This document shows, in pieces, positions 3,181 to 38,420 of a DNA stretch of 64,000 nt (within the stretch, counting starts at the first letter, position 1; every line of letters starts with the position of its first letter). The DNA is from an uncultured Actinomycetes bacterium (GTDB lineage: Bacteria; Actinomycetota; Thermoleophilia; UBA2241). The notes under the pieces were generated by a model. The model was given only the letters and a program-made list of their open reading frames with translations, searched no databases and was not told the DNA's origin. The stretch spans positions 40,139 through 104,138 of the forward strand of contig CAVVVA010000014.1 of assembly GCA_963751565.1 (NCBI GenBank), in the 5' to 3' direction. Made by a program: the position numbers and the translations under genes.

Positions 3181-4346
3181 GTCGTCTCCTCGAAGTGGTG
3201 ATAGTGGAACTCCCGCCGGATGAGGTCCTGGATCTCCTCGGGACGGATGAGCTTGCCGTCGATGCGCCCGTGGTCGACCACCTTGGCCCGTCCGGCCACG
3301 GCGGCCTGGACCTCCCAGGACATCTGCTTCAGGTTCATCTCGGGCACGATGATGGTGCGCACCTGCTCGGCCATGTGGTCGACGGCGGCGGTGGGAAACG
3401 GCCAGAGCGTGATGGGCCGCACGAGGCCGACCTTCACGCCCTGCCGGCGGGCCCATTTCATGGCCGCCCTGGCGGAACGCGCCACCGAGCCGTAGGCGAA
3501 GATGGCGACCTCGGCGTCTTCCATCTCAAGCTCTTCGACCCGGCAGATCGCGTCGCGATGATGGTAGATCTTCTCGCGCAGATAGAGACCGAGCCCCTCG
3601 GCCACCGACGGAGTGCCGGTCGCCGGCACGCCGCCCCGGCGGCGGTCGTAGACCAGGCCGGTGACGTGCACCGCATAGCGCGAGCCCAGCGCCGGCCGCG
3701 GCATGATGTTGTCGACGGTCGACATGACCTCGTCGTAGTCTTCGGGCTCCACGTCGGGCTCGCCGCGCGCGGCGACTCGCAGCTCATCGGCCAGCGGCAG
3801 GGCCACCGCCTCGCGCATGTGGCCGACGGTCGCGTCGGAGAGCAGAATGACCGGCGTGCGGTAGGCCTCGGCCAGATTGAAGGCCTCGACGGTCAGCGAG
3901 AAGCACTCGGCCACGGAGCTCGGCACGAGGGCGATGATCGAGTGCTCGCCGTGCGTGCCCCAGCGGGCCTGCATCACGTCGCCCTGCGAGGGCTCGGTCG
4001 GCAGACCTGTCGACGGTCCGCCGCGCATGACGTCGACGATGACGCACGGCACCTGGGCCATCGCGGCGTAGCCGATGCTCTCCTGCATGAGCGAAAAGCC
4101 GGGGCCCGACGTGGCGGTGAGCGCCTTGGCGCCGGCCAGCGAGGCGCCGATCACCGCGCCGATCGAGGCGATCTCGTCCTCCATCTGCATGAAGTGGCCG
4201 CCCACCTGGGGCAGGCGGCGCGCCAGCACCTCGGCGATCTCGGTCGAGGGCGTGATCGGGTAGCCGGCGAAGAACCGGGCGCCGGCCGCAATCGCGCCTT
4301 CGGCGACCGCTTCGTTGCCTTCGACCAGACGGCGCGGCTCGGGCAT
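3177..4346 (-). CDS. 2-oxoacid:ferredoxin oxidoreductase, alpha subunit
   Basis: Typical KorA/PorA N-terminus (GNEAVAEGAIAAGARFFAGYPITPSTEI) and TSGPGFSLMQE motif. Start MPEPRR at 4346 overlaps the delta stop by 1 nt (TGATG). Confidence 0.9.
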   Translation of the reverse strand: MPEPRRLVEGNEAVAEGAIAAGARFFAGYPITPSTEIAEVLARRLPQVGGHFMQMEDEIASIGAVIGASLAGAKALTATSGPGFSLMQESIGYAAMAQVPCVIVDVMRGGPSTGLPTEPSQGDVMQARWGTHGEHSIIALVPSSVAECFSLTVEAFNLAEAYRTPVILLSDATVGHMREAVALPLADELRVAARGEPDVEPEDYDEVMSTVDNIMPRPALGSRYAVHVTGLVYDRRRGGVPATGTPSVAEGLGLYLREKIYHHRDAICRVEELEMEDAEVAIFAYGSVARSARAAMKWARRQGVKVGLVRPITLWPFPTAAVDHMAEQVRTIIVPEMNLKQMSWEVQAAVAGRAKVVDHGRIDGKLIRPEEIQDLIRREFHYHHFEETT

Positions 4347-4615
4347 CAGGCCTTGCCTGCCGGCCGCACGATGTCGACGGCGAAGTCGGGACAGTGGCGC
4401 TCGCAGAACGCACAGACGGTGCAGTCGGCCAGGCGCGCGACGACCGGCTGACCGAGATCGTCGCGGTCGAAGACGTGCTCCGGACAGAGCTCGATGCAGA
4501 TGCCGCAGGCTTTGCACAGCTCGAGGTCGACGAGGATCGCCTCGGGGGCGCGACTCTTCGCTTTTGCGGGGGCGTCCTTCATCGGTGTCGCCGGCAGGCG
4601 GCCCGCCGTCGCCAA
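4346..4615 (-). CDS. 2-oxoacid:ferredoxin oxidoreductase, delta subunit (2x[4Fe-4S] ferredoxin)
   Basis: Two CxxCxxCxxxCP motifs (CKACGICIELCP; CTVCAFCERHCP). The true start may be the internal MKDAPAK (4582). Confidence 0.8.
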   Translation of the reverse strand: MATAGRLPATPMKDAPAKAKSRAPEAILVDLELCKACGICIELCPEHVFDRDDLGQPVVARLADCTVCAFCERHCPDFAVDIVRPAGKA

Positions 4616-4753
4616 GAAGCGGGGACCGATCCTGTCTGAATACAGTCTATGCGTCCCGGCCGCGCCGCGCCACCGTGCGCGCGCTGCGCCGCGCCGCCGT
4701 GCGGGCCTCGCGCGGCGCCACCGTGCGGGCCTCGCGCGGCGCCCGAGGCGTTC

Positions 4754-7729
4754 TCACGGCAGGAGCCGCTCGGCGAGGAACTCGAGGGGATGCCGCGCGG
4801 GGCGGCCGGCGAGGTCGCCGATCTGCGACCGGCACGACGTGCCGGTCGCCAGCACCGCGTCGCGCCGGCCCGCCGCCCGCACGGCCGGCAGCAGCGCCCG
4901 CTCGGCCACCTGCACGCTCAGCTCGTAGCGCTCCTTGCGGTAGCCGAACACGCCCGACATGCCGCAGCAGCCGGCATCGAGCACGGTGAGCTCGAGGTCG
5001 GGCACGCAGCGCAGCGCCCGAAGCGTGTCGTCCGCGCCGAACACCGCCCGCTCGTGGCAGTGCGGGTGGACCACGGCGCGGCCGCCGGCGGCGAAGCGCA
5101 GCCGGCCCGCGACGGCGGCGTCGGCTACCAGCGCGAGCCCGGAGCGCGCCGCCGCGGCCACCTCGGCGGCGGCGGCGTCGCCGGGCAGCAGCCGCTCCCA
5201 ATCGTCGCAGACCATCGCCTGGCAGCTCGGCTCGATGAAGACGATCGGCAGCCCCGCCCGGGCGGGCGGCGCGAGCGACCTCGCGGTCGCTCGCGCCGCC
5301 CGCCGCGCTTTGTCGATCATGCCCACCGACAGCATCGTGCGCCCGCAGCAGCCGACGCTGGCGACACTCGGCGTGTGGCCGGCCGCGCGCAGCAGTACCA
5401 GCAGCGCCTCGCCTATGTGCGGCTCCTGGTGTTCGCTGAAGCAGTCGGCGAAGACGATCACGCTGGGGACCGGCCCACGAGTCGTGCCGGGACCCGCGCC
5501 GGAGATCGCGCCGGGGGTCGCGCCGGGAGTAGTACCGGTCGCCCCGCCGGCAGACGCGCCGGCAGACGCGCCGCGCGCGGCCGCACGCGCCTGCTCCCGG
5601 CTGGAGAGCGAGCGCCGCGCGATCGCCGGCACGGAGCGGCGGGGGTCGACCCCGACGAGCGGCATGACGGCGCGGGCCGCAGGCCCGCGCCCCAGCGCGT
5701 TGACGAGCGGCGCGACCGGCGCCGCCAGCCTGGTGAGCCGGCGCAGGTCGGCGACGGCGCGCGCCAGCAGCGGCGTCCCCCGGCGGGAGTTGACCTCGGC
5801 GAGCCACTCGGCCTTGAGCGCCGCCATGTCGACCGCCGCCGGGCACTCGGCGCTGCAGGCCTTGCAGGCGAGGCAGGTGCCCAGGACGTCTTCGAACTCA
5901 CCCTCACCGAGCAGCGAGAGCGGCACCGCGCCGGCCACGACCGCCTGTAACAGGTTGGCGCGCGCGCGGGTCGTGTGCCACTCGTTGCGCGAGACCGCCG
6001 CCGGCGGGCACATGGTGCCCACCTGCTTCTTGCACAGGCCGGCGCCGAAGCAGCGCTCGACGGCCAGGTCGAACCCGCCCTCGCGGGCATAGGAGAGCCG
6101 CGGCCGCCACCCTGAGCGGTCGCGGTAGGCCGCGCCGAAGCGCAGGTTCTCGGCTACCTGCGGTCCTTCGACCTTGCGTCCCGGGCTGAGCAGGCGGCGC
6201 GGATCGAACAGGTCCTTGAGCGCCACGAACTCGGCGTAGAGCTCGGGCCCGAACAGCTCCGGGTTGAACCACGAGCGCGAGAAGCCGTCGCCGTGCTCGC
6301 CCGAGAAAGCGCCGTGCCGCTCGGCGACGAGACGCCCGACCTCGCGGGCGATGACCTCGAGCTTGCCGACGCCCACGGCCGTCTTCAGGTCGAGCATCGG
6401 GCGCACGTGCATGCAGCCGGCCGAGGCATGACCGGTAAACGAGGCGCGCACGCCGTGCGCCGCGACGACGCGCTGGAACTCGTCGACGTAGTCGGCGAGG
6501 CGCTCGGGAGGCACGGCGGTGTCCTCGACAAATGAAGCGGGACGATCCACGCCGGGCGCCCCCATGAGCAGGGGCAGCGAGGCGCGACGCAGCTCCCAGG
6601 CCTCATCCACCTCGTCCGGATCGGCGAAGAAGACCGTAGCCGAGGCGCCGAGGTCGGAGGCCACGCCGCGCAGGCGGTCGAGACCGGCCAGACCCTCGTC
6701 GCGCGTGCCCTGATATTCGACGAGCAGCACCGCCGGGTCGCCCCCGTCGAGGATCGCCCCGAGGCGCGTGAAGCGCCGCAGGTTGGGCGAGCGGCGCAGC
6801 GGCACCAGGTCGATGAGCTCGACCGCCGACGGCCCCGTGGGGAGGATGACCAGGTTCGCTTCGAGCGCGGCGCGCAGGCTCGCGAAGGTGAGCGCGGCCA
6901 GCGGCCGCGCCTGCGGCCGCTCGTCGAGCTGCACCTCGAGCTCGGTGAACAGCAGGAGCGTCCCCTCCGAACCGGCGAACAGGCGAGCCAGGTTGGGCTC
7001 GGGCTCGATCAGCTCGGGCAGGTTGTAGCCGGAGACGCGGCGGGCCGTGCGCGGGAAGTCGGCGGCGATGCGGGCGCGCGAGCGCGCCCGCATCGCCGCC
7101 AGGCCATCGGCGAGCGGCCCGCCGCCGGCCCCCGTCACGCCGCTGCGCAGGTCGCCGCCGGCGCACGGTCCGAACGCGGCCGCCTCTCCCCCGGCGAGCA
7201 CGCCCTGCACCCTCAGCAGCTTGTCCTTGGTCTCGCCGTAGACGATCGAGCGCGAGCCCGAGGAGTTGTTGCCGGCCATGCCGCCGATCGTCGCCTGCTC
7301 GACTGTCGAGGTGTCGGGCCCGAACTCGAGGCCGAAGGGCGCCGCGGCGCGGTTGAGAGCGCCCTGCACGACGCCCGGCTCGACTCTCGCGACCCGCCGC
7401 TCGGGGTCGATCTCGACGATGCGGTCGAGGTGAAAGCAGTCGATTGCGATGCCGGCGCCCAGGGTCTGCCCGGCGAGGCTCGTGGCCGCGCCCCGCACGC
7501 ACAGCGGCACGTCGTGGCGGGCCGCGACCTCGGCGGCCACGGCCAGGTCGTCGACCGACCTGGCCACGAGCACCGCGTCGGGCAGCACCCGGTAGATCGA
7601 GGCGTCGGTCGAGTAGAGCCAGCGCGACAGCGGGCTCGTGCGGACCTCGCCGGCCACGTGGCGAGCGAGGTCGGCGGCCGCGGCGAGGCCCCGCTTGCTC
7701 GGGGCTGGAATGCCGGCGTCGGCGCTCAT
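4754..7729 (-). CDS. Fused FAD-linked oxidase (GlcD/D-lactate dehydrogenase-like) plus Fe-S/CCG-domain (GlcF/GlpC-like) oxidoreductase, ~990 aa
   Basis: N-terminal FAD_binding_4-type sequence (RWLYSTDASIYRVLPDAVLVARSVDDL...GAATSLAGQ). Central CxxCxxCxxxCP ferredoxin-like motif (CLACKACSAECP). C-terminal Cys-rich CCG-like repeats. Start MSADAGIP at 7729; the upstream 91 codons of the ORF read through the repeat element. Confidence 0.85.
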   Translation of the reverse strand: MSADAGIPAPSKRGLAAAADLARHVAGEVRTSPLSRWLYSTDASIYRVLPDAVLVARSVDDLAVAAEVAARHDVPLCVRGAATSLAGQTLGAGIAIDCFHLDRIVEIDPERRVARVEPGVVQGALNRAAAPFGLEFGPDTSTVEQATIGGMAGNNSSGSRSIVYGETKDKLLRVQGVLAGGEAAAFGPCAGGDLRSGVTGAGGGPLADGLAAMRARSRARIAADFPRTARRVSGYNLPELIEPEPNLARLFAGSEGTLLLFTELEVQLDERPQARPLAALTFASLRAALEANLVILPTGPSAVELIDLVPLRRSPNLRRFTRLGAILDGGDPAVLLVEYQGTRDEGLAGLDRLRGVASDLGASATVFFADPDEVDEAWELRRASLPLLMGAPGVDRPASFVEDTAVPPERLADYVDEFQRVVAAHGVRASFTGHASAGCMHVRPMLDLKTAVGVGKLEVIAREVGRLVAERHGAFSGEHGDGFSRSWFNPELFGPELYAEFVALKDLFDPRRLLSPGRKVEGPQVAENLRFGAAYRDRSGWRPRLSYAREGGFDLAVERCFGAGLCKKQVGTMCPPAAVSRNEWHTTRARANLLQAVVAGAVPLSLLGEGEFEDVLGTCLACKACSAECPAAVDMAALKAEWLAEVNSRRGTPLLARAVADLRRLTRLAAPVAPLVNALGRGPAARAVMPLVGVDPRRSVPAIARRSLSSREQARAAARGASAGASAGGATGTTPGATPGAISGAGPGTTRGPVPSVIVFADCFSEHQEPHIGEALLVLLRAAGHTPSVASVGCCGRTMLSVGMIDKARRAARATARSLAPPARAGLPIVFIEPSCQAMVCDDWERLLPGDAAAAEVAAAARSGLALVADAAVAGRLRFAAGGRAVVHPHCHERAVFGADDTLRALRCVPDLELTVLDAGCCGMSGVFGYRKERYELSVQVAERALLPAVRAAGRRDAVLATGTSCRSQIGDLAGRPARHPLEFLAERLLP

Positions 7730-27128: not shown

Positions 27129-27485
27129 CTACCCCTCGTCGGCGGGCGGAGCGGCGCGCTCCCGTTTGCGCCGCGCGCGGTGCGCCTTGTCGCTCAGGCG
27201 GCGCTCCTTTTCGGCGCGGGGCACGCGGCCGGCGCGCCGCGCCGGCCGCGCCTCGTCCGAGTTGCGGCCGGCCACCTTGTCGCGCAGGCGCTCCAGGCAG
27301 ATCGCCTTGTTGCGGTGCTGGCTGCGCTCCCGTCGGCTGACGACCACGATGCCGCTGGGCCGGTGTCGCAGGCGTACGGCGCTGTCGGTCGTGTTCTGGT
27401 ACTGGCCGCCGGGCCCGCCGGCGCGAAACGTGGTGACGTCGCATTCAGCGAGCAGGTCGACGTCGTCTGCCGGCAGCTCGATCAC
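27129..27485 (-). CDS. arfB: Peptidyl-tRNA hydrolase ArfB (class-I release-factor-like GGQ domain, ribosome rescue)
   Basis: GGQ motif (RAGGPGGQYQNTTDSAVRL) and basic C-terminal tail. Start overlaps the stop of the SGNH gene (ATGA). Confidence 0.8.
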   Translation of the reverse strand: MIELPADDVDLLAECDVTTFRAGGPGGQYQNTTDSAVRLRHRPSGIVVVSRRERSQHRNKAICLERLRDKVAGRNSDEARPARRAGRVPRAEKERRLSDKAHRARRKRERAAPPADEG

Positions 27486-28630
27486 GGTCTCTGGGCCCCT
27501 CCGCCGACGTGGTAGTCACGTTCGATCCTCGCCACGATCGCCCAGCCGAGCCGCGCGGCCCCGGGCAGCGTCATGTGGACGCCGTCGGCCTGGCGCATGA
27601 GCTGCAGGTCACCGTGGGCGTCGCGCAGATAAGGGGAGTAGGCGCCCTTCGGCGTAGCGAACATCGACCAGGTATCGACGTAGACGACCCCGGGCCGCGT
27701 GGCCGCCTCCCGCTGGAAGATCGTGTCGAGCACCTTGACCGTGCGGCTGAACGACTTGGAGCCCATGATCGGCAACCCGACCCAGTACACGCGCGTGGCG
27801 CCGCCCCGCACCAGGGTGTCCATGGCCTGGCCGACCCGCTGAGCGTACAGCGCGTCCCAGGCGGGCGATTCGCTGGCCAGCACGCGGCCGTCCAGGTCGA
27901 CCGGCTGGGCGTCGTTGGCGCCAAAGAACGCCACCGCCACGTCGGGCTGCAGCACCCGCGACACGTAGGCCAGCCGTCGCGGCCAGTCGAAGTAGTCGGG
28001 ACGGCTCAGGCCGGTCGAGATGTGATAGTCGAGGGTCGCCCTCATCACGCCGCTCTCCTGCGCGTACTGCACGACCTGGGCGCCCGAGGTCTGGGCCATC
28101 GAGTCGCCGCCGACCCAGATGCGCAAGGGCCGTTCGGCGGTGGGCGTCGGGAGGGCCGTCGTGGCCGCACTCGGCGCGCCCAGGTCGCGCAGCCCGCTGC
28201 CCGACTCCTCCGCCGGACCGCCGCGTCCCAGGAGCGCCAGGGCGGCTTCGGCGGGGCGGTCCAGGAACACGAAGTGGCTGACTGCCGCCACGGGACGGAT
28301 GGCCGCGACGGCGAGCGTCCGCTGCGCCCCGAAGGGCATCGCTCTGGCGGTGCGCTGGATGCTCGCCGCGTTCAGGAACAGCGCGAGGCCCAACCCCAGG
28401 AGCCCGGCGACCAGCACGCTGCCGGCCGGCACGAGCCGCCGGCCGGCGGCGGTCGCCGCGTGCCGCCGCTGGAGGGCGGGCCCCACCGGCGAAGCGGGTC
28501 CGACCGGCGGAGCGGTCCCAGCCGACGGTGCGGGCCCGACCGACGGAGCGGGCCCGATCGACGGAGCGGCCGGCTCGGCCACCGGATCGAACCAGTTGTC
28601 GCCACCGTCGTCGTGCCCGCGCCCGTCCAT
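27482..28630 (-). CDS. SGNH/GDSL-like hydrolase, DUF459 family (AlgX/AlgJ/PatB-type partner of MBOAT), membrane-anchored
   Basis: Start MDGRGHDD at 28630 overlaps the MBOAT stop (TGATG). Pro-rich GPAPSVGPAPSAG repeats, one TM helix, then a GDS block (IWVGGDSMAQ) and a DUF459-like C-terminus. Confidence 0.7.
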   Translation of the reverse strand: MDGRGHDDGGDNWFDPVAEPAAPSIGPAPSVGPAPSAGTAPPVGPASPVGPALQRRHAATAAGRRLVPAGSVLVAGLLGLGLALFLNAASIQRTARAMPFGAQRTLAVAAIRPVAAVSHFVFLDRPAEAALALLGRGGPAEESGSGLRDLGAPSAATTALPTPTAERPLRIWVGGDSMAQTSGAQVVQYAQESGVMRATLDYHISTGLSRPDYFDWPRRLAYVSRVLQPDVAVAFFGANDAQPVDLDGRVLASESPAWDALYAQRVGQAMDTLVRGGATRVYWVGLPIMGSKSFSRTVKVLDTIFQREAATRPGVVYVDTWSMFATPKGAYSPYLRDAHGDLQLMRQADGVHMTLPGAARLGWAIVARIERDYHVGGGAQRP

Positions 28631-30060
28631 CAGAACCTGAAGTACAGAAAGGCGGCCGGCCCTTGCGGCCCGACCACGTTGAGCACGAAGAACCCGAGCG
28701 CCAGGCCGACACCCTGCAGCACCGGCGACAGGCGCGAAAAGCGCATCTGAGCCAGCCCGGTTGCCCGCGCCGGCACGTACTGGATGGCGATGCCCACGGC
28801 GATGACGAGCACAACCATGAAGGTCACGTTCGAGCCCACGCTGCCCCAGGCCGTGAACAGCCGCGAAAGGACCGCGAAGGGCGACGCAAAGCCGGAGCTG
28901 GTCGGCAGGAAGACCCAGGCGAAGGCCACGAACTGGAACGTGACGAACCGCTGCCGCGCCACCGGCCAGAAGCCGTCGCGCAGGTCGGGCTCGCCGCGCG
29001 CCCGGCGGCGGGCGGCGCGCCAGTGGTCGTGGCAGAGCCCGGCGCCGTGCAGCCCGCCCCAGAAGACGAAGGTCCAGGCGGCGCCGTGCCACAGTCCGGC
29101 CAGGAGCATGGCCGCCATGAGGTTGAGGTACGTGCGACGCGCGCCCTTGCGATTGCCGCCGAAGGGAATGTACAGGTAGTCGCGGATCCAGCTCGACAGC
29201 GTCATGTGCCAGCGCCGCCAGAAGTCGCGCACGTCGCACGCCGTGTAGGGAGCGTTGAAGTTGTCGGGCAGCTCGAACCCGAGCAGCAGCGAGAGTCCGA
29301 TGGCCATGTCGGAGTAGGCGCTGAAATCGCAGTAGATCTGCACGGCGTAGCCGTAGATGCCCAGCAGCGTCTCGAGCGACGTGTAGCGGCCGGGAGTGGT
29401 GAACACGCCGGTGACCAGATGGGTCGCCACGTAGTCGGCGATGAGCATCTTCTTGGCGAGCCCCGCGAAGATCAGAAACCAGGCGCGGCCCGCGTCGATG
29501 CGCCGCGGGTCGCGCGGTGCGCGCAGCTGCGGCAGAAAGTCCGAGGCGCGGGCGATGGGGCCCGCGAGCAGGTAGGGAAAGAAGGCGACGTAGACGGCGA
29601 CGTCGAGCAGCGACGCCGGCTGGAGGGTGCCGCGGTAGACGTCGACCACGTACGAGATGATGCGGAAGGTCAGGAAGGAGATGCCGATCGGCAGGGCGAG
29701 CTCGAGCAGCGGTGGGGTGAACCGCAGCCCGACGACGTGGAAGACGTTGGCCGCCGAGACGACGAAGAAATCGAAGTACTTGAACACGCCGAGCAGCCCG
29801 AGATCGAAGACCAGCGCGACGACGAGGGCCGCCTTGCGCGGCCCCGCGCCCCGTGCCCGCGCGATCGCCAGGGCAAAGGCGAAGTTCGCCAGCGCGACGA
29901 CGGCGAGCAGCGCGACGGCGCGGTAGTCCCACCAGCCGTAGAACACGCCGCCGGCCAGCACGATGAACACCTTCCACGCCCGCGGGCGGGGCATGAGCAG
30001 CCAGTTGGCGATGAACACCGCCACGAAGAAGATGGCGAAGGTGATGGTCGGAAACAGCAC
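28630..30060 (-). CDS. MBOAT-family membrane-bound O-acyltransferase (AlgI/DltB/PatA-like)
   Basis: Multi-TM. The conserved His region ...LLAGLWHGAAWTFVFWGGLHGAGL... and the overall AlgI/DltB pattern are present. Confidence 0.9.
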   Translation of the reverse strand: MLFPTITFAIFFVAVFIANWLLMPRPRAWKVFIVLAGGVFYGWWDYRAVALLAVVALANFAFALAIARARGAGPRKAALVVALVFDLGLLGVFKYFDFFVVSAANVFHVVGLRFTPPLLELALPIGISFLTFRIISYVVDVYRGTLQPASLLDVAVYVAFFPYLLAGPIARASDFLPQLRAPRDPRRIDAGRAWFLIFAGLAKKMLIADYVATHLVTGVFTTPGRYTSLETLLGIYGYAVQIYCDFSAYSDMAIGLSLLLGFELPDNFNAPYTACDVRDFWRRWHMTLSSWIRDYLYIPFGGNRKGARRTYLNLMAAMLLAGLWHGAAWTFVFWGGLHGAGLCHDHWRAARRRARGEPDLRDGFWPVARQRFVTFQFVAFAWVFLPTSSGFASPFAVLSRLFTAWGSVGSNVTFMVVLVIAVGIAIQYVPARATGLAQMRFSRLSPVLQGVGLALGFFVLNVVGPQGPAAFLYFRF

Positions 30061-30142
30061 GGCAGCCCCACCCGATGGTAGATCAAGACCCGCGGCCCAT
30101 CCAAGCGCTTTGTCGCACGCCTCGCAAGGGAGGCCGTCCCGG

Positions 30143-31186
30143 TCAGGCCTCCGGGGCTGCGGTCGGCGCGGGAGCCAGCATCGCCAGGGCCGCGGGCAGG
30201 AGCTCGGCCCGCAGGGGAAGGCGGCCGAGCGGTTCGCCGTCGAGATCGAGGGCGAACCGCTCGGCCGCCGACGAGTCGAGCAGCTCGACCTCGATGCCGC
30301 GGCAGCGCAGCAGCTCCACGCCCGGCACGCTCAAGTGGCGGCCGCGGTAGACCTTGGGGAGGTTGCAAACGACGGTCCACTTGGAGTCGGTGGCGATCGA
30401 GACGACGTCGAGCAGGCCGTCGTCGGGCACGGCCGTCGGCGCCAGGCGCATGCCGCCGCCGAACACCGCGCCGTTGCAGAGTCCCAGGAGGTAGGTCGAC
30501 ACCTCGCGCTCGACGACCTCGCCCGGTTCGTGGCCGGCGAGGCCGGCGAGGCGCAGGCGCAGCCGGGCGCGGGGGCACTGCGCGAGCGCCCACACCGCCG
30601 CCAGGCCGTACGACAGGCGGCCGCCGGCCCGGCGGGGGATCTTCTCGACGTAGCGGTCGACGAGTCCGCCCGGCCCCGCCGACAGGACGTTGACGACGTA
30701 GCGCTCGCACGCTTCGCCGGCATGGTCTGGAAAGCCGACCCGCAGGAGATCGATGGCGCGCGTGCGACCGCCGGCGAGCACGCCGAGGTAGTCGTCGAGG
30801 CGGCCGCCAATGCCGAGGCTGCCGCCGAAATCGCCGCCGGTGCCCAGGCCGATGACACCGACGCGCGGGCTGCCGGCGGTCGGCGCGGGAGAGCCGGGGA
30901 CGGGCGGTGCGGGCGCTCCGGCGCCACCGGCCGCCTGTCGAGCCTGCATGACGCCGTTTACGACCTCGTTCAGCGTGCCGTCCCCGCCCACCGCGACGAT
31001 CGTCTCGCGACCTTCGCCGGCGGCGCGGCGCGCGAGGTCGGTCGCATGGCCGCGGCGCGCCGTGAGCTCGAAATCGACGTCGCCCAGGACCCGCTCGACG
31101 GCCGCCGCGAAGCGCGCCAGCGACCGTCCCCCCGCCATCTTGCCGCTCGAGGGATTGACGATCAGAAGTGGCCGGGCGCCGGTCAT
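30143..31186 (-). CDS. Diacylglycerol kinase catalytic-domain lipid kinase (YegS/BmrU/DagK family)
   Basis: LLIVNPSSGKM...IVAVGGDGTLNEVVNG is the DAGK_cat signature. Start MTGARP at 31186; upstream codons in the ORF are Arg-rich noise. Confidence 0.8.
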   Translation of the reverse strand: MTGARPLLIVNPSSGKMAGGRSLARFAAAVERVLGDVDFELTARRGHATDLARRAAGEGRETIVAVGGDGTLNEVVNGVMQARQAAGGAGAPAPPVPGSPAPTAGSPRVGVIGLGTGGDFGGSLGIGGRLDDYLGVLAGGRTRAIDLLRVGFPDHAGEACERYVVNVLSAGPGGLVDRYVEKIPRRAGGRLSYGLAAVWALAQCPRARLRLRLAGLAGHEPGEVVEREVSTYLLGLCNGAVFGGGMRLAPTAVPDDGLLDVVSIATDSKWTVVCNLPKVYRGRHLSVPGVELLRCRGIEVELLDSSAAERFALDLDGEPLGRLPLRAELLPAALAMLAPAPTAAPEA

Positions 31187-31368
31187 CCGGGCAAGTATAT
31201 GTCGGTGGCGGGCCGGCGCCACGGCAAAGCCCCGGCGCCGGTGTCCGGAGCGGCGGACGCCGGCGCCTCCCGCCGCCGGGCATCGACGCCCGCGGCCAAT
31301 GGGCGCCCGCGGGCAACGGCCGCGGGCGTCGTTTGGTATCCTTGACGTCCACCGCGACAAGGGGTCAC

Positions 31369-32631
31369 GTGGCGCACCACACCGCACGGGCAAGTTACGA
31401 GGAGCTCACCCGCCGTCTCAACAAGTTCCCCGTGGGAGCGCCGCCGACGGAGCTCTTCTACGACATCCTCGCGATGCTCTTCACAGAGCGCGAGGCGCGG
31501 CTCGTCGCGCAGCTCCCGGTCGCCCCCTTCAGGGCCGCCGACGCCGCCCGCGCCTGGGGCACCAGCGCAACGCAGGCCGAGCGCGAGCTCGACCGGCTGG
31601 TCGCCCGTTCGCTGCTCATCGACACGTGCTTCGACGGCGAGCGCCGCTACTTTCTGCCGCCTCCCATGGCCGGCTTCTTCGAGTTCTCGATGATGCGCAC
31701 CGACGGGCACGTCGACAAGCAGACCCTGGCGGAGCTCTTCCACCGCTACATGAACGTCGAGGACGAGTTCGTCCGCGAGCTGTACGAACCGGGCGAGACC
31801 CAGCTCGGCCGGGCGCTCGTGCACGAACCGGCGCTCGCTCCCCTCGACGAGCTGCACGTGCTCGACCACGAACGCGCCAGCGTCATCATCGGCGAGGCCC
31901 ACCACCTGGGCGTCGGGCTGTGCTACTGCCGCCACAAGATGGAGCACCTCGGCAAGGCCTGCGACGCTCCCCTGGAGCTGTGCCTGTCGTTGAACGCCGC
32001 CGCCGAGACCCTGATCCGCCAGGGCATCGTGCGGCCGATCGAGCCGGCCGAGGGACTCGACCTGCTCGCCGCAGCCTACGAGCACGACCTCGTGCAGTTC
32101 GCCGAGAACGTGCGCCTCGGCGTCAACTTCATCTGCAACTGCTGCTCCTGCTGCTGCGAGACGATGATCGCCGCCCGGCGCTTCGCCGTGTTGCGACCCG
32201 TCCACACGACGCGTTTCATGCCGGTGGTCGATGAGCAGGCCTGCGGCGGCTGCGGGCGCTGCGCCGAGATGTGCCCCGTCGAAGCGATGCGCCAGGAGCT
32301 GCCGGGCGCCGCGCCGACGGTCGACCGCTCGGTCTGCATCGGCTGCGGCATCTGCAGCCGGAACTGCGCGCAGCGCGCCATCCTCCTTGCCGTGCGCCCC
32401 GAACGCATCGTCACGCCGCTCGACTCGGCGCACCGCACCGTCGTGATGGCCATCGAGCGGGGCAAGCTCCAGAACCTGATCTTCTCGGAACAGGGGCTCG
32501 CCAGCCACCGGGCGCTGGCCGCCGTGCTGGGCGTCATCCTGCGTCTGCCGCCGGTCAAGCAGGTCATGGCGAGCCGGCAGATCAAGTCGCGTTATCTCGA
32601 AGGGCTGATAGCCCGCCGCCGGTACTGGTGA
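31369..32631 (+). CDS. Uncharacterized Cys-rich Fe-S protein with C-terminal 2x[4Fe-4S] ferredoxin motifs
   Basis: GTG start with AAGGGG 6 nt upstream. Motifs LCYCRHKMEHLGKAC, an unusual CNCCSCCC cluster, and CGGCGRCAEMCP...CIGCGICSRNC. Confidence 0.7.
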   Translation: MAHHTARASYEELTRRLNKFPVGAPPTELFYDILAMLFTEREARLVAQLPVAPFRAADAARAWGTSATQAERELDRLVARSLLIDTCFDGERRYFLPPPMAGFFEFSMMRTDGHVDKQTLAELFHRYMNVEDEFVRELYEPGETQLGRALVHEPALAPLDELHVLDHERASVIIGEAHHLGVGLCYCRHKMEHLGKACDAPLELCLSLNAAAETLIRQGIVRPIEPAEGLDLLAAAYEHDLVQFAENVRLGVNFICNCCSCCCETMIAARRFAVLRPVHTTRFMPVVDEQACGGCGRCAEMCPVEAMRQELPGAAPTVDRSVCIGCGICSRNCAQRAILLAVRPERIVTPLDSAHRTVVMAIERGKLQNLIFSEQGLASHRALAAVLGVILRLPPVKQVMASRQIKSRYLEGLIARRRYW

Positions 32632-32678
32632 GGCGCCCGCGGGAGGGCGCCGCTGGGCGGCGCCCTCCCGCGGGCGCC
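32632..32678. terminator. Perfect 21 bp-stem hairpin immediately after the Fe-S gene stop (GGCGCCCGCGGGAGGGCGCCGC-TGGG-GCGGCGCCCTCCCGCGGGCGCC)
   Basis: Perfect inverted repeat seen in sequence. No T-tract. Confidence 0.55.
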
Positions 32679-32704
32679 CCGGCCACCTGAGGCGGCCAGA
32701 AAGG

Positions 32705-32983
32705 ATGGTTCGCATGGAGGACGAGAGAGGACGGCCGCACGAGCCTACGTCGTCGATGACGATGCTGCGCCGTGGCGCCGTCCCGTTCCTGTGCGGTCTG
32801 GTCGCCCTCGGTCTGCTCGCGTTCATCGTGCAGAACGGCCAGCGCGCCGACGTGCACTGGCTGGCCTGGACCTTCACCGCGCCGCTCTGGATCGACCTCA
32901 TGGTGCCGGCGGTCGGCGCCGTGCTGGTCGCCGGCCTCGCCGCCGTGCTCGTCGTGCGCCGGCGACGCCGCAAGACCCGCTGA
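32705..32983 (+). CDS. Small LapA/DUF1049-family membrane protein
   Basis: LAFIVQNGQRADVHWLAWTFTAPLWIDLMV... followed by a basic tail is the LapA-like pattern. The true start is probably the internal M at about 32756. Confidence 0.6.
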   Translation: MVRMEDERGRPHEPTSSMTMLRRGAVPFLCGLVALGLLAFIVQNGQRADVHWLAWTFTAPLWIDLMVPAVGAVLVAGLAAVLVVRRRRRKTR

Positions 32984-33124
32984 CCGCGACGCCGGGGCGA
33001 TGCGGTCGGCGTGGCGCGGCGCGTCCGGCGTCGGGCTGCGGCTGCTCGCGGCGTGGGGCTGCGGCTGCTCGCGGCGTCGGATAGAATCGATCGCGGATCG
33101 ACACTCGCGCGAAAGGGGGGCGAG

Positions 33125-34111
33125 ATGAAGGTGACGCTGCTGTCCGAGGCCGAGATCCGCGCCTGCGCCGGGTTCGACCGCGAGGCGCTCGAAGCGGTCG
33201 CCCAGGGTTTCTCGCGCCTCGCAGAGGGACGCGCCTTCGCGCCCCCCGTCATCGCCATCGAGATCCCCGAGCACAACGGCGAGGTCGACATCAAGACGGC
33301 CTACATCGAGGGGCTCGACAGCTTCGCCGTCAAGGTCGCCGCGGGCTTCGCCGACAATCCCGCCAGGGGCCTGCCTTACGGCACGGGCATGATGGTCCTG
33401 ATCAGCGCCGAGACAGGCTTTCTGCAGGCGCTGCTCGTCGACAACGGCTACCTCACCGAGCTGCGCACCGGCCTGGCCGGAGCGCTCGCCGCCGACGCGC
33501 TGGCGCGGCGCGAGATCGAGACCGCCGGCGTGATCGGTTCGGGCTCGCAGGCGCGCTACCAGATGCGCGGCCTCAAGATGGTGCGCGACTTCCAACGACT
33601 GTGCGTCTACGGGGTCGTCCCCGAGGAGCTCTCGCGCTACGCCGACGACATGGCGGCCGAGCTCGGCGTCGACGTCGTCGTGGCGAGCACGGCCGAGTCG
33701 GTCGTGCGCGAGAGCGACGTCGTGGTCTGCGCCACGCCGGCGCGCGAACCCTACCTGCGGGCCCAGTGGCTGCACGCCGGCCTGCACATCACCGCGATGG
33801 GCTCCGACATGCCGGGCAAGCAGGAGCTCTACGCCGAGTGCTTCGCCAGGGCCGACCGCGTCGTCTGCGACCGCGTCTCGCAGTGTGTCGCGATCGGCGA
33901 GCTGCACCACGTCGTGGGCGCCGGCCTTCTCGACGAGAGCCGGGTCGACGAGCTCGGCGAGCTCGCCGCGGGCATGAAGCCCGGCCGTCAGGCCGACGAC
34001 GAGATCACGATCTGCGACCTGACGGGCGTCGGCGTCCAGGACACGGCGATCGCCCGGCTCGCCTACCGGCGGGCGCTGGCCGCCGGACTCGGCGTATCGT
34101 TCGGCGACTGA
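33125..34111 (+). CDS. Ornithine cyclodeaminase / mu-crystallin family protein (cyclodeaminase or ketimine reductase)
   Basis: OCD_Mu_crystallin pattern with Rossmann GVIGSGSQARYQ. AAGGGGGG Shine-Dalgarno before ATG 33125. Confidence 0.85.
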   Translation: MKVTLLSEAEIRACAGFDREALEAVAQGFSRLAEGRAFAPPVIAIEIPEHNGEVDIKTAYIEGLDSFAVKVAAGFADNPARGLPYGTGMMVLISAETGFLQALLVDNGYLTELRTGLAGALAADALARREIETAGVIGSGSQARYQMRGLKMVRDFQRLCVYGVVPEELSRYADDMAAELGVDVVVASTAESVVRESDVVVCATPAREPYLRAQWLHAGLHITAMGSDMPGKQELYAECFARADRVVCDRVSQCVAIGELHHVVGAGLLDESRVDELGELAAGMKPGRQADDEITICDLTGVGVQDTAIARLAYRRALAAGLGVSFGD

Positions 34112-34165
34112 CCGGGCGCGACGCGTCACCGGCGGCGGCATCGTCCAGGCACGAAGGAGAACCAC

Positions 34166-35308
34166 ATGGCAGCGACCCGGCCGTTCGTCGAATTCTCACT
34201 CGAGCGCCTGCTGTCGACCTACGAGAACGAGGTCGAGATCAACCTCTCCGAGAGCGGCGTGCACCCGCTGACCATGCGCAGGCTGCTCGAGATGAAGGGC
34301 GGCGACCTCGACGCCGACCTGGCGGCGATCGCCGATAGCGAGCTCAACTACCCCCAGGCCAACGGCGACCTCGAGCTGCGCGAGGCGATCGCCCGCTGGT
34401 ACCCGGGCGCGACCGCCGCCAACGTGCTCGTCACCGTCGGCGCCATCCAGGCGAACTTCACGAGCCTGCTGACCGTGACCGAGCCCGGCGACGCGGTCGC
34501 CGTCATGCAGCCCAACTACCAGCAGTTCTGGGGGCTCGCCCAGAACCTGGGACGGGCCATGAGCTCGTTCTCCCTGAAGCAGCACCGCGACTGGGCGCTC
34601 GACCTCGACGAGCTGCAGGACGCCGTCGCTCCACAAACCAGGTTCGTGGCCGTCGTGAACCCCAACAACCCCACCGGGCGGATCCTGCGCGCCGAAGAGC
34701 GGGCGGCGATCGTCGCGGCGGCGCAGCGCAGTGGCGCCTGGCTGCTGGCCGACGAGGTCTACGCAGGGGCCGAGAGGGTGACCGACGAGTTCACTCCGAC
34801 GTTCTACGGACAGTACGAGAGGGTGCTGGCGATCGGCAGCACCTCCAAGGCCTACGGGCTGCCCGGCCTGCGCATCGGCTGGGTCGTGGGGCCGGCCGAT
34901 ATCGTCGCCCGGATGTGGGCCTGGCAGGACTACATCACGATCTGTACGACCTGCCTGGGCAACAAGCTGGCCGCCGTCGCCCTGTCTCCCGGCGTGCGTC
35001 CGCAGATCCTCGCGCGCACGCGCGGCTACGTGCGGCGCGGCTTCGAGAACGTGGCGCGCTGGGCGGCGGCGCGCGACGACGTCGAGGTGCTGCCGCCCGA
35101 CGCGGCCGCCATCTGCTTCGTCAAGTACGCCCGCAAGATCAACTCGACCGAGTTCGTCATGCGGCTCGTGCGCGAGAAGAGCGCCTTCGTCGCTCCCGGC
35201 GACCTCTTTGGCCTGGATGGCCACCTGCGCGTCAGCTTCGGCCTGCCCGACGAGTACGTGCGCGAGGGGCTCGTGCGGATCGGCGAGCTGCTCGACGACG
35301 TCGGGTGA
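34166..35308 (+). CDS. PLP-dependent aminotransferase, class I/II
   Basis: PLP-Lys region AIGSTSKAYGLPGLRIGW and the class I/II fold pattern. Confidence 0.85.
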   Translation: MAATRPFVEFSLERLLSTYENEVEINLSESGVHPLTMRRLLEMKGGDLDADLAAIADSELNYPQANGDLELREAIARWYPGATAANVLVTVGAIQANFTSLLTVTEPGDAVAVMQPNYQQFWGLAQNLGRAMSSFSLKQHRDWALDLDELQDAVAPQTRFVAVVNPNNPTGRILRAEERAAIVAAAQRSGAWLLADEVYAGAERVTDEFTPTFYGQYERVLAIGSTSKAYGLPGLRIGWVVGPADIVARMWAWQDYITICTTCLGNKLAAVALSPGVRPQILARTRGYVRRGFENVARWAAARDDVEVLPPDAAAICFVKYARKINSTEFVMRLVREKSAFVAPGDLFGLDGHLRVSFGLPDEYVREGLVRIGELLDDVG

Positions 35309-35337
35309 CGGCGGCCCGGGGGCGTCCGGACGTGGCG

Positions 35338-36492
35338 ATGACGGCGAGCACGCAGAACGTCGCGCGACCCGGCGTGATCGAGCTCTCCTTCGGCGAGCCC
35401 GATCCAGCACTCTTCCCCGCCGCCGGACTGGCCGAAGCCTGCCGCGAGGCGCTCGCTGACGGTGGCGGCGAGGCTCTGGCGTACGGGGCCAACGCCGGCC
35501 CGGCGACCCTGCGCCGCCGGCTGGCCGAGCGCCTGACCGGGCTCGAGGGGCGGCCGACCCGCGACGACGAGACACTGATCAGCGGCGGCAACTCGCAAGC
35601 CCTCGACCAGCTCGTCACGCTGTTCTGCCGGCCCGGCGACGTGGTGCTCGTCGAGCGGCCCACGTACAGCCTCGCGCTGGGCATTCTGCGCGATCACCCC
35701 GTCGTTACCGAGGCGCTCGCCTTCGACGACGAAGGCCTCGACGTGGCCGCGCTCGAGCGGCGTCTCGTCGAGGCGCGGGCCACGGGCAGGCAGGTGCGGC
35801 TGCTCTACACGATCCCCACGTTCCACAACCCGACCGGCGTCTCGCTGTCCGCCGACCGGCGGCGGCGACTGGTCGAGGTCGCCGAGGCCTACGGCCTGCT
35901 CGTGGTCGAAGACGACGTCTATCGCGAGCTCTGGTACGAAGAACCGGCGCCGCCCTCGCTATGGAGCCTCGCGGCGCCCGGCAGCGTGCTGCGCCTGGGC
36001 TCCTTTGCCAAGACGATCGCCCCCGGGCTGCGCGTCGGCTGGGTGAACGCCGCTCCCGAGCAGATCGAGCGCATCGCCATGAGTGGCCTGAACGACAGCG
36101 GCGGCTGCCCCAGCCAGTTCGCCGCGGCGGTTGCCGAACGGTTTCTCGCGACCGGGCGCTACGACCCGCACGTCGCCCGGCTGCGCGCCGCCTACGCCGC
36201 CCGCCGCGACGGCCTGGCGGCCGCCCTCGCGGCGCTCCTGCCCAGGGGCTGCAGACTTTCGGCGCCGGCGGGAGGATTCTTCATCTGGGTGTCGCTGCCC
36301 GCAGGGCTGCGGGCCAGCGAACTGCTGCCGGCGGCCGAGGCGGCGGGAGTGTCGTTCGTGCCGGCCGCCCGCAGCCACCTCGACGGCTACGACGGCGGCC
36401 TGCGCCTGGCCTTCACGCTGTACGAGACCGAGCGGCTCACCGAGGCCGCGGCGCGGCTGGGCGAGACGATCGCGGCGGCGCTGCGAACGTGA
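35338..36492 (+). CDS. PLP-dependent aminotransferase, class I/II (2-aminoadipate/LysN-like)
   Basis: PLP-Lys region LGSFAKTIAPGLRVGWV. Start MTASTQ at 35338; the upstream part of the ORF overlaps the previous gene. Confidence 0.85.
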   Translation: MTASTQNVARPGVIELSFGEPDPALFPAAGLAEACREALADGGGEALAYGANAGPATLRRRLAERLTGLEGRPTRDDETLISGGNSQALDQLVTLFCRPGDVVLVERPTYSLALGILRDHPVVTEALAFDDEGLDVAALERRLVEARATGRQVRLLYTIPTFHNPTGVSLSADRRRRLVEVAEAYGLLVVEDDVYRELWYEEPAPPSLWSLAAPGSVLRLGSFAKTIAPGLRVGWVNAAPEQIERIAMSGLNDSGGCPSQFAAAVAERFLATGRYDPHVARLRAAYAARRDGLAAALAALLPRGCRLSAPAGGFFIWVSLPAGLRASELLPAAEAAGVSFVPAARSHLDGYDGGLRLAFTLYETERLTEAAARLGETIAAALRT

Positions 36493-37199: not shown

Positions 37200-38420
37200 T
37201 CAGCCGGCGGCGGGCGGGGCGGCCTTCGCGCCGTACCGTCGCCGGTACAGCACGTAGGCCACCCCGCCCGCCGGGATCGGCATCCAGAATGAAACGAGAC
37301 GGTAGGCGAGCGTGCCCAGAGTCGCGTCGGCGACCCCGACGCCGGCCAGCCCGAGCGTGGCGACGAGGCCGACTTCGACGAAGCCGAGCCCGCCGGGCGT
37401 GATCGGCACCATGCCCAGCAGGGCGGCGACGACGTAGGCGACAAGCACGAGGGAGGCGCGCGGCCGCGCGCCCGTGGCGCCCAGCGCCGCGAGCAACGCG
37501 CTGTAGTCGAGCAGCCAGTTGCCGGCGGCGTAGGGCAGCGCCTCCCACCACCGCCGGCCGAGCATGTTCTTGATGAGATCGCGCTCGTCGACCAGCCGGC
37601 CCGACAGGCCGGTCATGGGCTGGCGGCGACGGCGCAGACGGTTGTGCACGCGCTCGACCAGCACGCCTACCGCCCGCAGGGGGCGGTCGAAGAACAGCCC
37701 GACGGCGCCCGCCGCCAGGATGAGGGCAAAGACGATCATGCCGTAGACGAGAGCGTGCACCAGCGTCGTGTCGACCGTCGCGCCGCCGAACAGGATCGCC
37801 GGCAGCGACAGGACCGGCAGGCTGAACAGGACGGCGGTCGACAGCAGCGTGGTCGCGGTGAGACCGGAGACGACGCGTTCGGGCGGCGCTCCGGTAGCGG
37901 TGAACATCTGGTAGCTCGCAGTGCCGCCCGAGGCGGCGCCGCCGGGGATGAGGCGGCTCACCGCGTTGCTCGACAGCTGCGCCGTGGCGATCAGAAACCA
38001 GCTCGGTTCGTTCAGGCTCAGTCGCATGAGCCCCCAGGCGCAGGCGAAGCTGGCCGCCTCGAGCAGACCCATGAGGACGAACCAGAACCACAGGATGCCG
38101 CGCAGTTGCGGCAGTTGCGAGAACAGGTTGACGAGCTGCGGCCAGACGAAGTACAGACCGACGATGGCTATGCCGAACACCAGGATCTGGCGCAGCGGCA
38201 GCCGCTTGAGCAGCGTCCACAACCCGGGGGCGACCTCGTCGGCGGGGGCGCCTGCGCTCCTGCCGCGGCCCGGCGCCGCGCCTCGCGCCGGCGCGGCGGC
38301 GGGCGACCGGTGCGGCGCCGCGTCGGGCTCGCGGGGCCCACCCTGCGGCCTCGGCGGCCGTGGGGGGCGCCGCTGGGGGTCGCCGGGTGCCGTGTCGTTG
38401 CCGGGCATGTCGGGCCCCAT
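37200..38420 (-). CDS. YbhN/UPF0104 flippase-like membrane protein (lysylphosphatidylglycerol-synthase TM-domain family)
   Basis: Pro/Arg-rich disordered N-terminus, then about eight TM helices in the MprF-TM/YbhN pattern. Confidence 0.75.
   Translation of the reverse strand: MGPDMPGNDTAPGDPQRRPPRPPRPQGGPREPDAAPHRSPAAAPARGAAPGRGRSAGAPADEVAPGLWTLLKRLPLRQILVFGIAIVGLYFVWPQLVNLFSQLPQLRGILWFWFVLMGLLEAASFACAWGLMRLSLNEPSWFLIATAQLSSNAVSRLIPGGAASGGTASYQMFTATGAPPERVVSGLTATTLLSTAVLFSLPVLSLPAILFGGATVDTTLVHALVYGMIVFALILAAGAVGLFFDRPLRAVGVLVERVHNRLRRRRQPMTGLSGRLVDERDLIKNMLGRRWWEALPYAAGNWLLDYSALLAALGATGARPRASLVLVAYVVAALLGMVPITPGGLGFVEVGLVATLGLAGVGVADATLGTLAYRLVSFWMPIPAGGVAYVLYRRRYGAKAAPPAAG

Follow-up and report, generated by a model that had tools for sequence, protein, structure and literature searches.

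The stretch of DNA analysed here, which we refer to as the window, comprises 64,000 nucleotides (nt) from an uncultured Actinomycetes bacterium. Its G+C content is ~72%, and its nearest public relatives are metagenome bins of the uncultured Actinomycetes or Thermoleophilia type. Our analysis concerns a gene for an iron-sulfur (Fe-S) protein and the genes that follow it on the same strand, which encode a small membrane peptide, an enzyme of the ornithine cyclodeaminase (OCD)/mu-crystallin family and two class-I aminotransferases (AT1 and AT2). An original prediction, made from the sequence letters, had described these genes as a single cassette headed by the Fe-S protein; the gaps of 54 and 29 nt that it gave between the last three genes (34111 to 34166 and 35308 to 35338) are right. 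The following features are discussed below:

31187 to 31368, no strand assigned: divergent intergenic region between a lipid kinase gene and the Fe-S gene, with an inverted repeat and a -10-like box inside
31369 to 32631, plus strand: open reading frame (ORF) of the Fe-S protein gene, 420 amino acids (aa), member of an uncharacterised widespread family
32632 to 32678, plus strand: perfect hairpin directly after the stop codon of the Fe-S gene
32705 to 32983, plus strand: small two-helix membrane protein, 92 aa, weakly LapA-like
33026 to 33124, plus strand: region upstream of the OCD gene, with a tandem repeat, a -10-like box and a ribosome-binding site
33125 to 34111, plus strand: OCD/mu-crystallin-family enzyme, 328 aa, of the branch resembling alanine dehydrogenase (AlaDH), pyrroline-2-carboxylate (Pyr2C) reductase, BhcD and EutC
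34166 to 35308, plus strand: class-I aminotransferase AT1, 380 aa, similar to PRK07324, GntC and VioD
35338 to 36492, plus strand: class-I aminotransferase AT2, 384 aa, similar to ARO8, LysN, KAT and MppQ

The Fe-S protein is a member of a genuine and large family that is under strong constraint and has no description in the libraries searched. The database holds more than 8000 close relatives, all of ~420-430 aa, and identity to the members from Chloroflexota, Desulfuromonadales, Coriobacteriia, Ignavibacteria and other groups amounts to ~58-60%. A HMMER search of 1.8 billion cluster representatives recovered 760 clusters (50% identity) at E<1e-30, and a scan of one genome per species found the family in at least 537 species from more than 10 phyla, with identities of 50-60%. 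Carriers include Sulfurospirillum arcachonense, Anaeromyxobacter oryzae, Herpetosiphon and Cetobacterium as well as Acidobacteriota, Bacteroidota, Spirochaetes and Clostridia. The only label given to family members by PGAP is '4Fe-4S dicluster-binding protein', and a plasmid search returned only generically named homologues in unrelated contexts. The protein is composed of four parts:

31450 to 31656, plus strand: winged-helix domain, residues ~28-96, from the AlphaFold model, Foldseek and Pfam matches in divergent relatives
31864 to 32214, plus strand: Cys-rich alpha/beta domain, residues ~166-282, with ten conserved cysteines, from conservation
32215 to 32403, plus strand: 2x[4Fe-4S] ferredoxin domain, residues ~283-345, from a Fer4 match (E=1.7e-10) and Protein Data Bank (PDB) matches
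32404 to 32631, plus strand: basic C-terminal helical region, residues 346-420, net charge +9, from the model, conservation and charge

The two canonical ferredoxin motifs originally predicted, C292xxC295xxC298xxxC302P and C323xxC326xxC329xxxC333, are located at residues 292-302 and 323-333, and the Fer4 match of 40.7 bits against a Pfam cutoff of 21.1 identifies this part as a ferredoxin domain. The ten cysteines of the preceding domain are C185xC187, C198, C205 and C256xC258C259xC261C262C263, which corresponds to the spacing CxC-x10-C-x6-C ... CxCCxCCC. They comprise both the LCYCRHK...KAC motif (C185, C187 and C198) and the CNCCSCCC run (residues 256-263, nt 32134-32157) that had been pointed out in the original prediction. 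All 18 cysteines of these motifs are invariant or at least 90% conserved, both among 30 close relatives and among 50 relatives of 26-54% identity. In the 50-sequence alignment, C185, C198, C205, C256, C258, C259, C261 and C263 are invariant down to 26% identity, C187 and C262 are conserved to at least 90%, and seven of the eight ferredoxin cysteines are invariant, with C295 at 90% or above. G102 and R148 are likewise invariant in this alignment, and N247 is invariant or at least 90% conserved to 26% identity.

Structure prediction by AlphaFold with the 30 close relatives gave a weak model with a predicted local distance difference test (pLDDT) of 58.9, while the diverse 50-sequence alignment raised it to 92.7, with a predicted template modelling score (pTM) of 0.89. 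The model consists of the winged helix, linker helices, the Cys-rich domain, the ferredoxin domain and four C-terminal helices, in this order. The winged helix is modelled with helices at residues 28-37, 56-63 and 67-79 and a hairpin at 84-95. The Cys-rich domain is predicted to adopt a beta-alpha-beta-alpha-alpha-beta-beta-alpha arrangement, in which the ten cysteines are placed at strand ends. The C-terminal helical region, whose charge of +9 compares with a family mean of +7.4, is well conserved among full-length members and missing in a subset of shorter (~360 aa) distant relatives. It could bind a membrane, a nucleic acid or a partner.

Database searches assigned the ferredoxin stretch alone. 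The PDB matches to FwdF, HdrA, MvhB and RnfB are confined to it, a profile of the whole protein matched PDB chains only at positions 269-373, and all NCBIfam matches fall within residues 255-376. None of the named ferredoxin-enzyme equivalogs (PorD/KorD, RnfB, HgcB, HdrA, FrhG and others) reached the NCBIfam cutoff, the best being PorD_KorD with 36.6 bits versus 60. Residues 283-345 align with the polyferredoxins FwdF, MvhB, RnfB and PorD and with the C-terminal domain of HdrA, sharing the two CxxCxxCxxxC motifs, whereas ~280 N-terminal and ~75 C-terminal residues of the Fe-S protein have no counterpart in them. A profile of the Cys-rich domain matched no PDB entry at E<=10, and 38 sequences of this domain matched no Pfam family, with PF02754 (CCG) and FeThRed_B being absent even at E<=10. 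Searched alone against the protein database, the domain retrieved only fragments of its own family and no other architecture, and among the longer family members no informative domain fusions were found. Foldseek, which had been suggested as a check, recovered the ferredoxin and winged-helix pieces only and no whole-chain relative of the model in the PDB (best E = 2e-3, TM <= 0.18). Furthermore, a literature search on the Cys motif and on combinations of winged helix, 4Fe-4S and TrmB returned nothing relevant. The view that the protein falls into no named family thus holds, as Pfam, NCBIfam and the PDB match its ferredoxin domain only. Two thirds of the length of the family match no entry in these three libraries, and we count it among the better-defined uncharacterised families in Fe-S biochemistry.

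We then compared the gene neighbourhoods. The proteins of the window were searched by tblastn against 80 species-level Fe-S loci with a reach of 6 kb. OCD or AT1 was found near the Fe-S gene in one of the 80, and this locus belongs to the window's own lineage. Conversely, the Fe-S gene lies near the OCD gene in seven of 84 OCD loci, all of them again from this lineage, and OCD-AT1 pairs exist without it. An unbiased clustering of neighbours within 4 kb revealed no family present in more than 8 of 83 Fe-S loci. The 135 immediate neighbours of Fe-S genes match 161 Pfam families, the commonest of which occurs in five loci, and their strands are random. The surroundings of distant family loci (Pelobacter, Cetobacterium and others) are unrelated. 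Moreover, the relatives carry intervening genes. In locus L002, a PMT_2 gene and an opposite-strand gene of the major facilitator superfamily separate the Fe-S/peptide pair from the OCD gene, and in L001 a 174-aa ORF is inserted at this place. In L099, an ATP-binding cassette (ABC) transporter gene and an opposite-strand amine oxidase gene lie between the Fe-S and OCD genes.

The DNA between the two groups of genes contains further signs of a boundary. A perfect hairpin had been predicted directly behind the Fe-S gene at 32632-32678; perfection and position are confirmed, and its arms (32632-32653 and 32657-32678) measure 22 nt rather than 21, with 100% complementarity and a 3-nt loop. Its energy is -69.3 kcal/mol (z = -6.3), and none of 200 shuffles was as stable. 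Hairpins of varying sequence are present at the same position in L001, L093 and L096 and absent in L092, the closest relative. The hairpin, which lacks a U-tract, is probably a terminator or a structure at the end of the mRNA. The OCD gene starts at the ATG at 33125, which is preceded by a GAAAGGGGGG Shine-Dalgarno sequence, and we rejected the start of the long ORF at 33011. Upstream of this start lie a conserved -10-like box, GATAGAAT (TAGAAT at 33082-33087), and the ribosome-binding site GAAAGGGG. Both are kept in the window and in six of six aligned close relatives, whatever the upstream gene. A scan for the sigma-70 consensus found no promoter in this DNA of 72% GC; the promoter-like boxes before the Fe-S and OCD genes were recognised by their conservation. 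Taken together, the hairpin, the separate conserved boxes and the variable genes in between indicate that the Fe-S and OCD/AT units are probably transcribed separately.

In the single-cassette reading, the Fe-S protein would be an electron donor or a regulator of the OCD/aminotransferase pathway. The common strand, the adjacency in the window and its closest relatives and the missing hairpin of L092 speak for it. However, it is not borne out by the comparison: Fe-S and OCD/AT genes occur together in a single one of the 80 loci, no neighbour is conserved, most OCD-AT loci are devoid of the Fe-S gene, and genes, some on the opposite strand, intervene in relatives. The strong hairpin and the independent conserved promoter-like box between the units likewise contradict one cassette. 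In addition, enzymes of the OCD family work with NAD(P)H and have no need of a ferredoxin (PMC4141209). The comparative data largely refute this reading, which we regard as highly improbable, and they argue that the Fe-S gene has no linkage to the OCD/AT genes. For annotation, the lesson is that the neighbours in the window say nothing about the function of the Fe-S gene.

On balance, we favour two independent transcription units in the 5.1-kb region, with a free-standing multi-cluster redox protein on the one hand and, on the other, an OCD-like/AT1 couple of a transaminase and an NAD(P)H-dependent imine reductase or amino-acid dehydrogenase. The first unit would consist of the Fe-S gene, followed in this lineage by the gene for the small membrane peptide. 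The ferredoxin domain of the protein would pass electrons on to additional metal clusters, one or two in number, bound by the ten cysteines; at this site, either a small substrate would be reduced or a redox signal sensed. In this view, the protein would work on its own as a redox enzyme or sensor, in a housekeeping role that has nothing to do with the genes beside it. The second unit would comprise the OCD-like, AT1 and AT2 genes under their own promoter. The analysis demonstrates the architecture, its conservation, the absence of linkage between the units and the pairing of OCD with AT1, whereas cluster binding by the ten cysteines, catalysis and substrates are our inference.

Several points weigh against this reading. 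No U-tract accompanies the hairpin, and L092 has no hairpin at all; read-through into the membrane-peptide gene is therefore likely, and it could continue beyond this gene. The window's lineage keeps the Fe-S and OCD genes 1-5 kb apart, a weak synteny that extends to a relative whose Fe-S protein is only 60% identical; as a synteny block of cell-envelope genes is kept in this lineage, the two remain near each other with no functional link implied. Conservation is the single argument for cluster binding by the ten cysteines, which may hold Zn or Cu in place of such clusters, or pair up as disulfides. A transcription factor would likewise account for the winged helix, for a gene that stands alone and for the conserved promoter palindrome. 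Finally, Val42 of the OCD homolog replaces the first basic residue of the tetrad that marks its superfamily (see below), and judging from this exchange its chemistry may differ from that of the characterised enzymes.

Cysteine-dense cluster sites are known from the CCG domain of HdrB, which holds a non-cubane [4Fe-4S] cluster, and from the CxC motifs of ferredoxin:thioredoxin reductase. The consensus of the Fe-S family reads CNCCGCCC and has CxC pairs too, and here likewise the cysteines sit at the strand ends of an alpha/beta domain; this likeness is an analogy only. As a tentative extension, the ten-Cys domain may represent a new metal-cluster-binding fold, in which the 2x[4Fe-4S] domain feeds one or two clusters of a non-standard Fe-S or mixed-metal type, and the family a new class of free-standing redox enzymes or sensors. 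If this is true, the redox class would extend over more than 500 species, whose phyla range from Actinomycetota to Bacteroidota, Desulfobacterota, Campylobacterota and Fusobacteriota. A new cluster-binding motif and a housekeeping redox function missing so far could come to light once the cofactors of the family and its reaction or signal are worked out. In our view, the value of the analysis lies in this family and not in the locus.

The winged helix noticed at the N-terminus in the original prediction is backed by AlphaFold, Foldseek and Pfam. This piece matches the MarR-type proteins, among them ST1710, in the PDB with a Foldseek probability of about 0.9, ST1889 and IclR are matched as well, and TrmB matches were obtained in nine of the 50 divergent relatives, with IclR or MarR matches as well. 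Winged helices combined with an Fe-S module have precedents in archaeal TFE-beta/RPC6 and in FeoC. The Fe-S protein could be a transcription factor that senses redox state, O2 or NO, in which the state of the clusters in the Cys-rich and ferredoxin domains would switch DNA binding by the winged helix, for instance to the palindrome at the promoter of its own gene. The structural matches to MarR, ST1710 and IclR agree with such a role, as do Pfam matches to TrmB, MarR, IclR or Fe_dep_repress in at least nine of the 50 divergent relatives and a stand-alone gene without conserved neighbours, as seen for global regulators.

The region upstream of the Fe-S gene bears on the same question. It contains an inverted repeat at 31284-31331 with 23-nt arms that are 83% complementary. 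The outer arms read CCAATGG...CCGTTTGG (31296-31336), and an extended -10-like box, TGGTATCCT at 31334-31342, abuts the repeat. The box and the outer half-sites CCAAYGG...CCGTYTGG are kept in relatives of 82-92% identity, which would suit a regulator; the inner stem varies in sequence and length, and the long stem is specific to the window. We therefore dropped the long palindrome as an operator, since its long stem is not conserved and the outer half-sites alone are. The repeat may serve as an operator, or it may be a structural feature of the divergent promoter region that the Fe-S gene shares with the lipid kinase gene. A search of the analysed region as a whole against Rfam gave no match.

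Against a sensory transcription factor, the distance between the half-sites is variable, and their arms act as those of a hairpin would. Within a protein that is otherwise 60% conserved, the putative recognition helix and the wing are least conserved, the helix being the least conserved segment. The charge of the winged-helix domain is net negative, with -1.2 to -1.3 for the helix and -1.4 to -1.8 for the whole domain. MarR, TrmB and IclR regulators share the N-terminal fold and weak sequence matches in divergent relatives; the Fe-S protein differs from them in its much greater length, its 18 conserved cysteines, its far higher conservation and its acidic, poorly conserved recognition helix, and its DNA binding is putative. 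An identity of 58% over 420 aa across phyla looks more enzyme-like, and so do the invariant polar residues other than cysteine (R148, E105, N247, H189, H193 and H279). An enzyme fits the negative charge and the variable helix better than a DNA binder does. The acidic, variable helix and the very high conservation of many polar residues lean toward an enzyme, and we consider the transcription factor a rather doubtful alternative to a free-standing redox protein.

The second unit encodes, as predicted, an OCD/mu-crystallin enzyme and two class-I aminotransferases, all of them clear Pfam members above the cutoffs (E = 5e-63 for OCD, 1e-47 for AT1 and 2e-34 for AT2). The OCD homolog scores 213 bits against PF02423 (OCD_Mu_crystall; cutoff 24). 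Characteristic of the superfamily are a GxGxxA Rossmann motif and an [R/K]-K-R-D tetrad (PMC4141209). In the OCD homolog, the Rossmann motif G138-S-G-S-Q-A143 as well as K70, R114 and D306 are invariant, and D228 is present. The first tetrad position is occupied by Val42, where AfAlaDH and TlLhpI have Lys or Arg. Asp55 is invariant in the lineage and corresponds to Arg52 in AfAlaDH and to Leu52 in TlLhpI; Lys57, also invariant in the lineage, is common to BhcD. In the structure of the Pseudomonas putida OCD, Glu56 of this true OCD reportedly contacts the distal amine. Being acidic, Asp55 resembles the residue that true OCD has at this position, which may mean that the substrate carries a positive group at its distal end.

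The OCD homolog passes the NCBIfam model NF006141 'cyclodeaminase' (PRK08291) with 415.8 bits versus 408, which is an annotation family only. For EutC (TIGR02992) it scored 368.5 at a cutoff of 471.7, for the archaeal AlaDH (TIGR02371) 229.7 at 409.2, for BhcD (NF045643) 206.2 at 500, for the Pyr2C/piperideine-2-carboxylate (Pip2C) reductase LhpI 142.3 at 322 and for ornithine cyclodeaminase (NF005762) 124.6 at 350, and so it stays below each of these equivalog cutoffs. Among solved structures, AfAlaDH, TlLhpI and BhcD come closest (E = 1e-54 to 1e-42), while true ornithine and lysine cyclodeaminases and CRYM reach only ~1e-22. The true ornithine/lysine cyclodeaminases are thus more distant from the homolog than AlaDH, Pyr2C reductase, BhcD and EutC are. 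With Archaeoglobus AlaDH (1OMO), Thermococcus TlLhpI (6T3E), BhcD (6RQA) and EutC it shares the superfamily and the core residues; it differs from them in remaining below their cutoffs and in its Val42, Asp55 and Lys57.

This proximity to AlaDH allows for another function, in which the OCD-like enzyme would act as an alanine dehydrogenase, or as one for another 2-oxo acid, and together with the two transaminases would channel amino groups into or out of ammonia through pyruvate and alanine. The Archaeoglobus enzyme is the best solved relative (E=2.6e-54) and shares D228 and the GxDxPGKQEL region with the OCD homolog, and the related TlLhpI has AlaDH activity (PMC4141209). However, the archaeal AlaDH equivalog score lies far under its cutoff, Lys41 and Arg52 of AfAlaDH are replaced by Val42 and by Asp55, which is acidic like Glu56 of true OCD, and distant relatives are found beside EutB-like dehydratases and polar amino-acid ABC transporters, which points to a specific catabolic substrate. 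Weighing these observations, we give an AlaDH-type function a low probability; an alanine shuttle of this kind is, like the cyclic-imine route, one plausible form of the couple that we favour for the second unit.

Both aminotransferases match PF00155, AT1 with 163 bits and AT2 with 119.5 bits, and contain the lysine motif for pyridoxal 5'-phosphate (PLP), SxSK...G..G.R.G, as GSTSKAYGLPGLRIGW in AT1 and as GSFAKTIAPGLRVGW in AT2. AT1 is nearest to PRK07324, GntC (253.8 bits, cutoff 415) and VioD (234.3 bits, cutoff 390.9), and AT2 scores 302.9 bits against MppQ (cutoff 540), being equally close to archaeal KAT and LysN. The PLP cyclases GntC and VioD and the enduracididine aminotransferase MppQ are among the best NCBIfam and PDB matches of AT1 and AT2. 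We dropped a link to the enduracididine or capreomycidine pathways, since none of these scores comes anywhere near its cutoff and AT2 has equally close relatives in KAT and LysN. Unlike in the GntC, VioD and MppQ systems, no gene for an arginine hydroxylase or oxidase is found near AT1 and AT2.

The pairing of OCD and AT1 was counted in 67 metagenomic or genomic loci with an OCD identity of 52-93% and enough downstream sequence. An AT1-like gene lies directly downstream of the OCD gene in 42 of them and directly upstream in six more, which answers the proposed neighbourhood check in favour of a conserved OCD-AT1 pair. AT2 joins the pair only in the window's clade, an actinobacterial lineage. 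Because the OCD-like gene and AT1 are co-conserved elsewhere, a route that combines a transaminase with an imine reductase is reasonable. AT1 would most likely turn an amino acid into a 2-oxo acid; with a diamino substrate, the 2-oxo product would close spontaneously to a cyclic imine, and the NAD(P)H-dependent OCD-family enzyme would reduce this imine or run the reverse reaction. As far as the comparisons go, a cyclic-imine route is plausible, for which the original prediction had named lysine to pipecolate and ornithine to proline as possible examples, and we take the OCD-like/AT pair as a candidate for imine reduction in the metabolism of a basic or cyclic amino acid.

Routes of this kind lead to pipecolate, in plants by the aminotransferase ALD1 and the OCD-family reductase SARD4 and in bacteria from lysine via piperideine-2-carboxylate (P2C). 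The conserved pair found here has the same composition, with a class-I aminotransferase gene directly next to that of an OCD-family enzyme. In contrast to the pipecolate route, neither a pipecolate oxidase nor a piperideine-6-carboxylate (P6C) dehydrogenase gene lies near the OCD/AT genes, and the partner genes in distant relatives are EutB-like dehydratases and ABC transporters. We view the OCD-like/aminotransferase pair as a conserved two-gene module of ordinary amino-acid metabolism that is common in sediment and soil metagenomes, and the OCD/AT operon of the window as equally ordinary.

The more distant OCD-AT1 loci (L097-L171, e.g. L133 at 3898-7161) have a EutB-like Ser/Thr dehydratase gene upstream in 20 cases. 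They are often flanked by genes for polar amino-acid ABC transporters and sometimes accompanied by genes for an MttB-like methyltransferase, a GcvPA-like protein and a class-III aminotransferase. These neighbourhoods suggest the catabolism of an osmolyte-like or hydroxylated amino compound, and the combination of EutB-like and OCD-AT1 genes resembles the dehydratase-reductase couples EutB/EutC and BhcB/BhcD. In two loci, a flavin amine oxidase gene (Amino_oxidase/DAO) lies upstream of OCD-AT1 on the opposite strand (L010, 3443-5020; L099, 2344-3885, minus strand), and its product may be the imine-making partner of the pair. L002 and L012 come from a lineage with an Fe-S protein of 82% identity. 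Their matches to OCD, AT1 and AT2 are short and broken up (12989-15829 of L002), being either decaying pseudogenes or frameshift errors of a long-read assembly.

The product of the small gene behind the hairpin is a membrane peptide, as had been predicted, and has two helices; its assignment as LapA-like is weaker, since the match to the LapA domain (PF06305) stays below the gathering cutoff (23.7 bits versus 28). Conservation of the peptide, and its position 3' of the Fe-S gene, are restricted to the lineage of the window. The stretch that separates the peptide gene from the OCD gene contains a tandem direct repeat (33026-33071) of two 23-nt copies, 96% identical, with the unit CGGCGT[CG]GGGCTGCGGCTGCTCG. 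The closest relatives show a single GGCTGCGGC copy, and relatives of 86-88% identity have none. The 174-aa ORF found at this place in L001 (9652-10176) is also present in L092, has no Pfam match and is absent from the window.

The genes are flanked on both sides by cell-envelope lipid genes (27482-31186 and 37200-38420), which also include a DUF459/GDSL gene:

28630 to 30060, minus strand: DltB-like MBOAT gene
30143 to 31186, minus strand: YegS-like lipid kinase gene, with its start codon at 31186
37200 to 38420, minus strand: gene for a flippase-like LPG_synthase_TM protein

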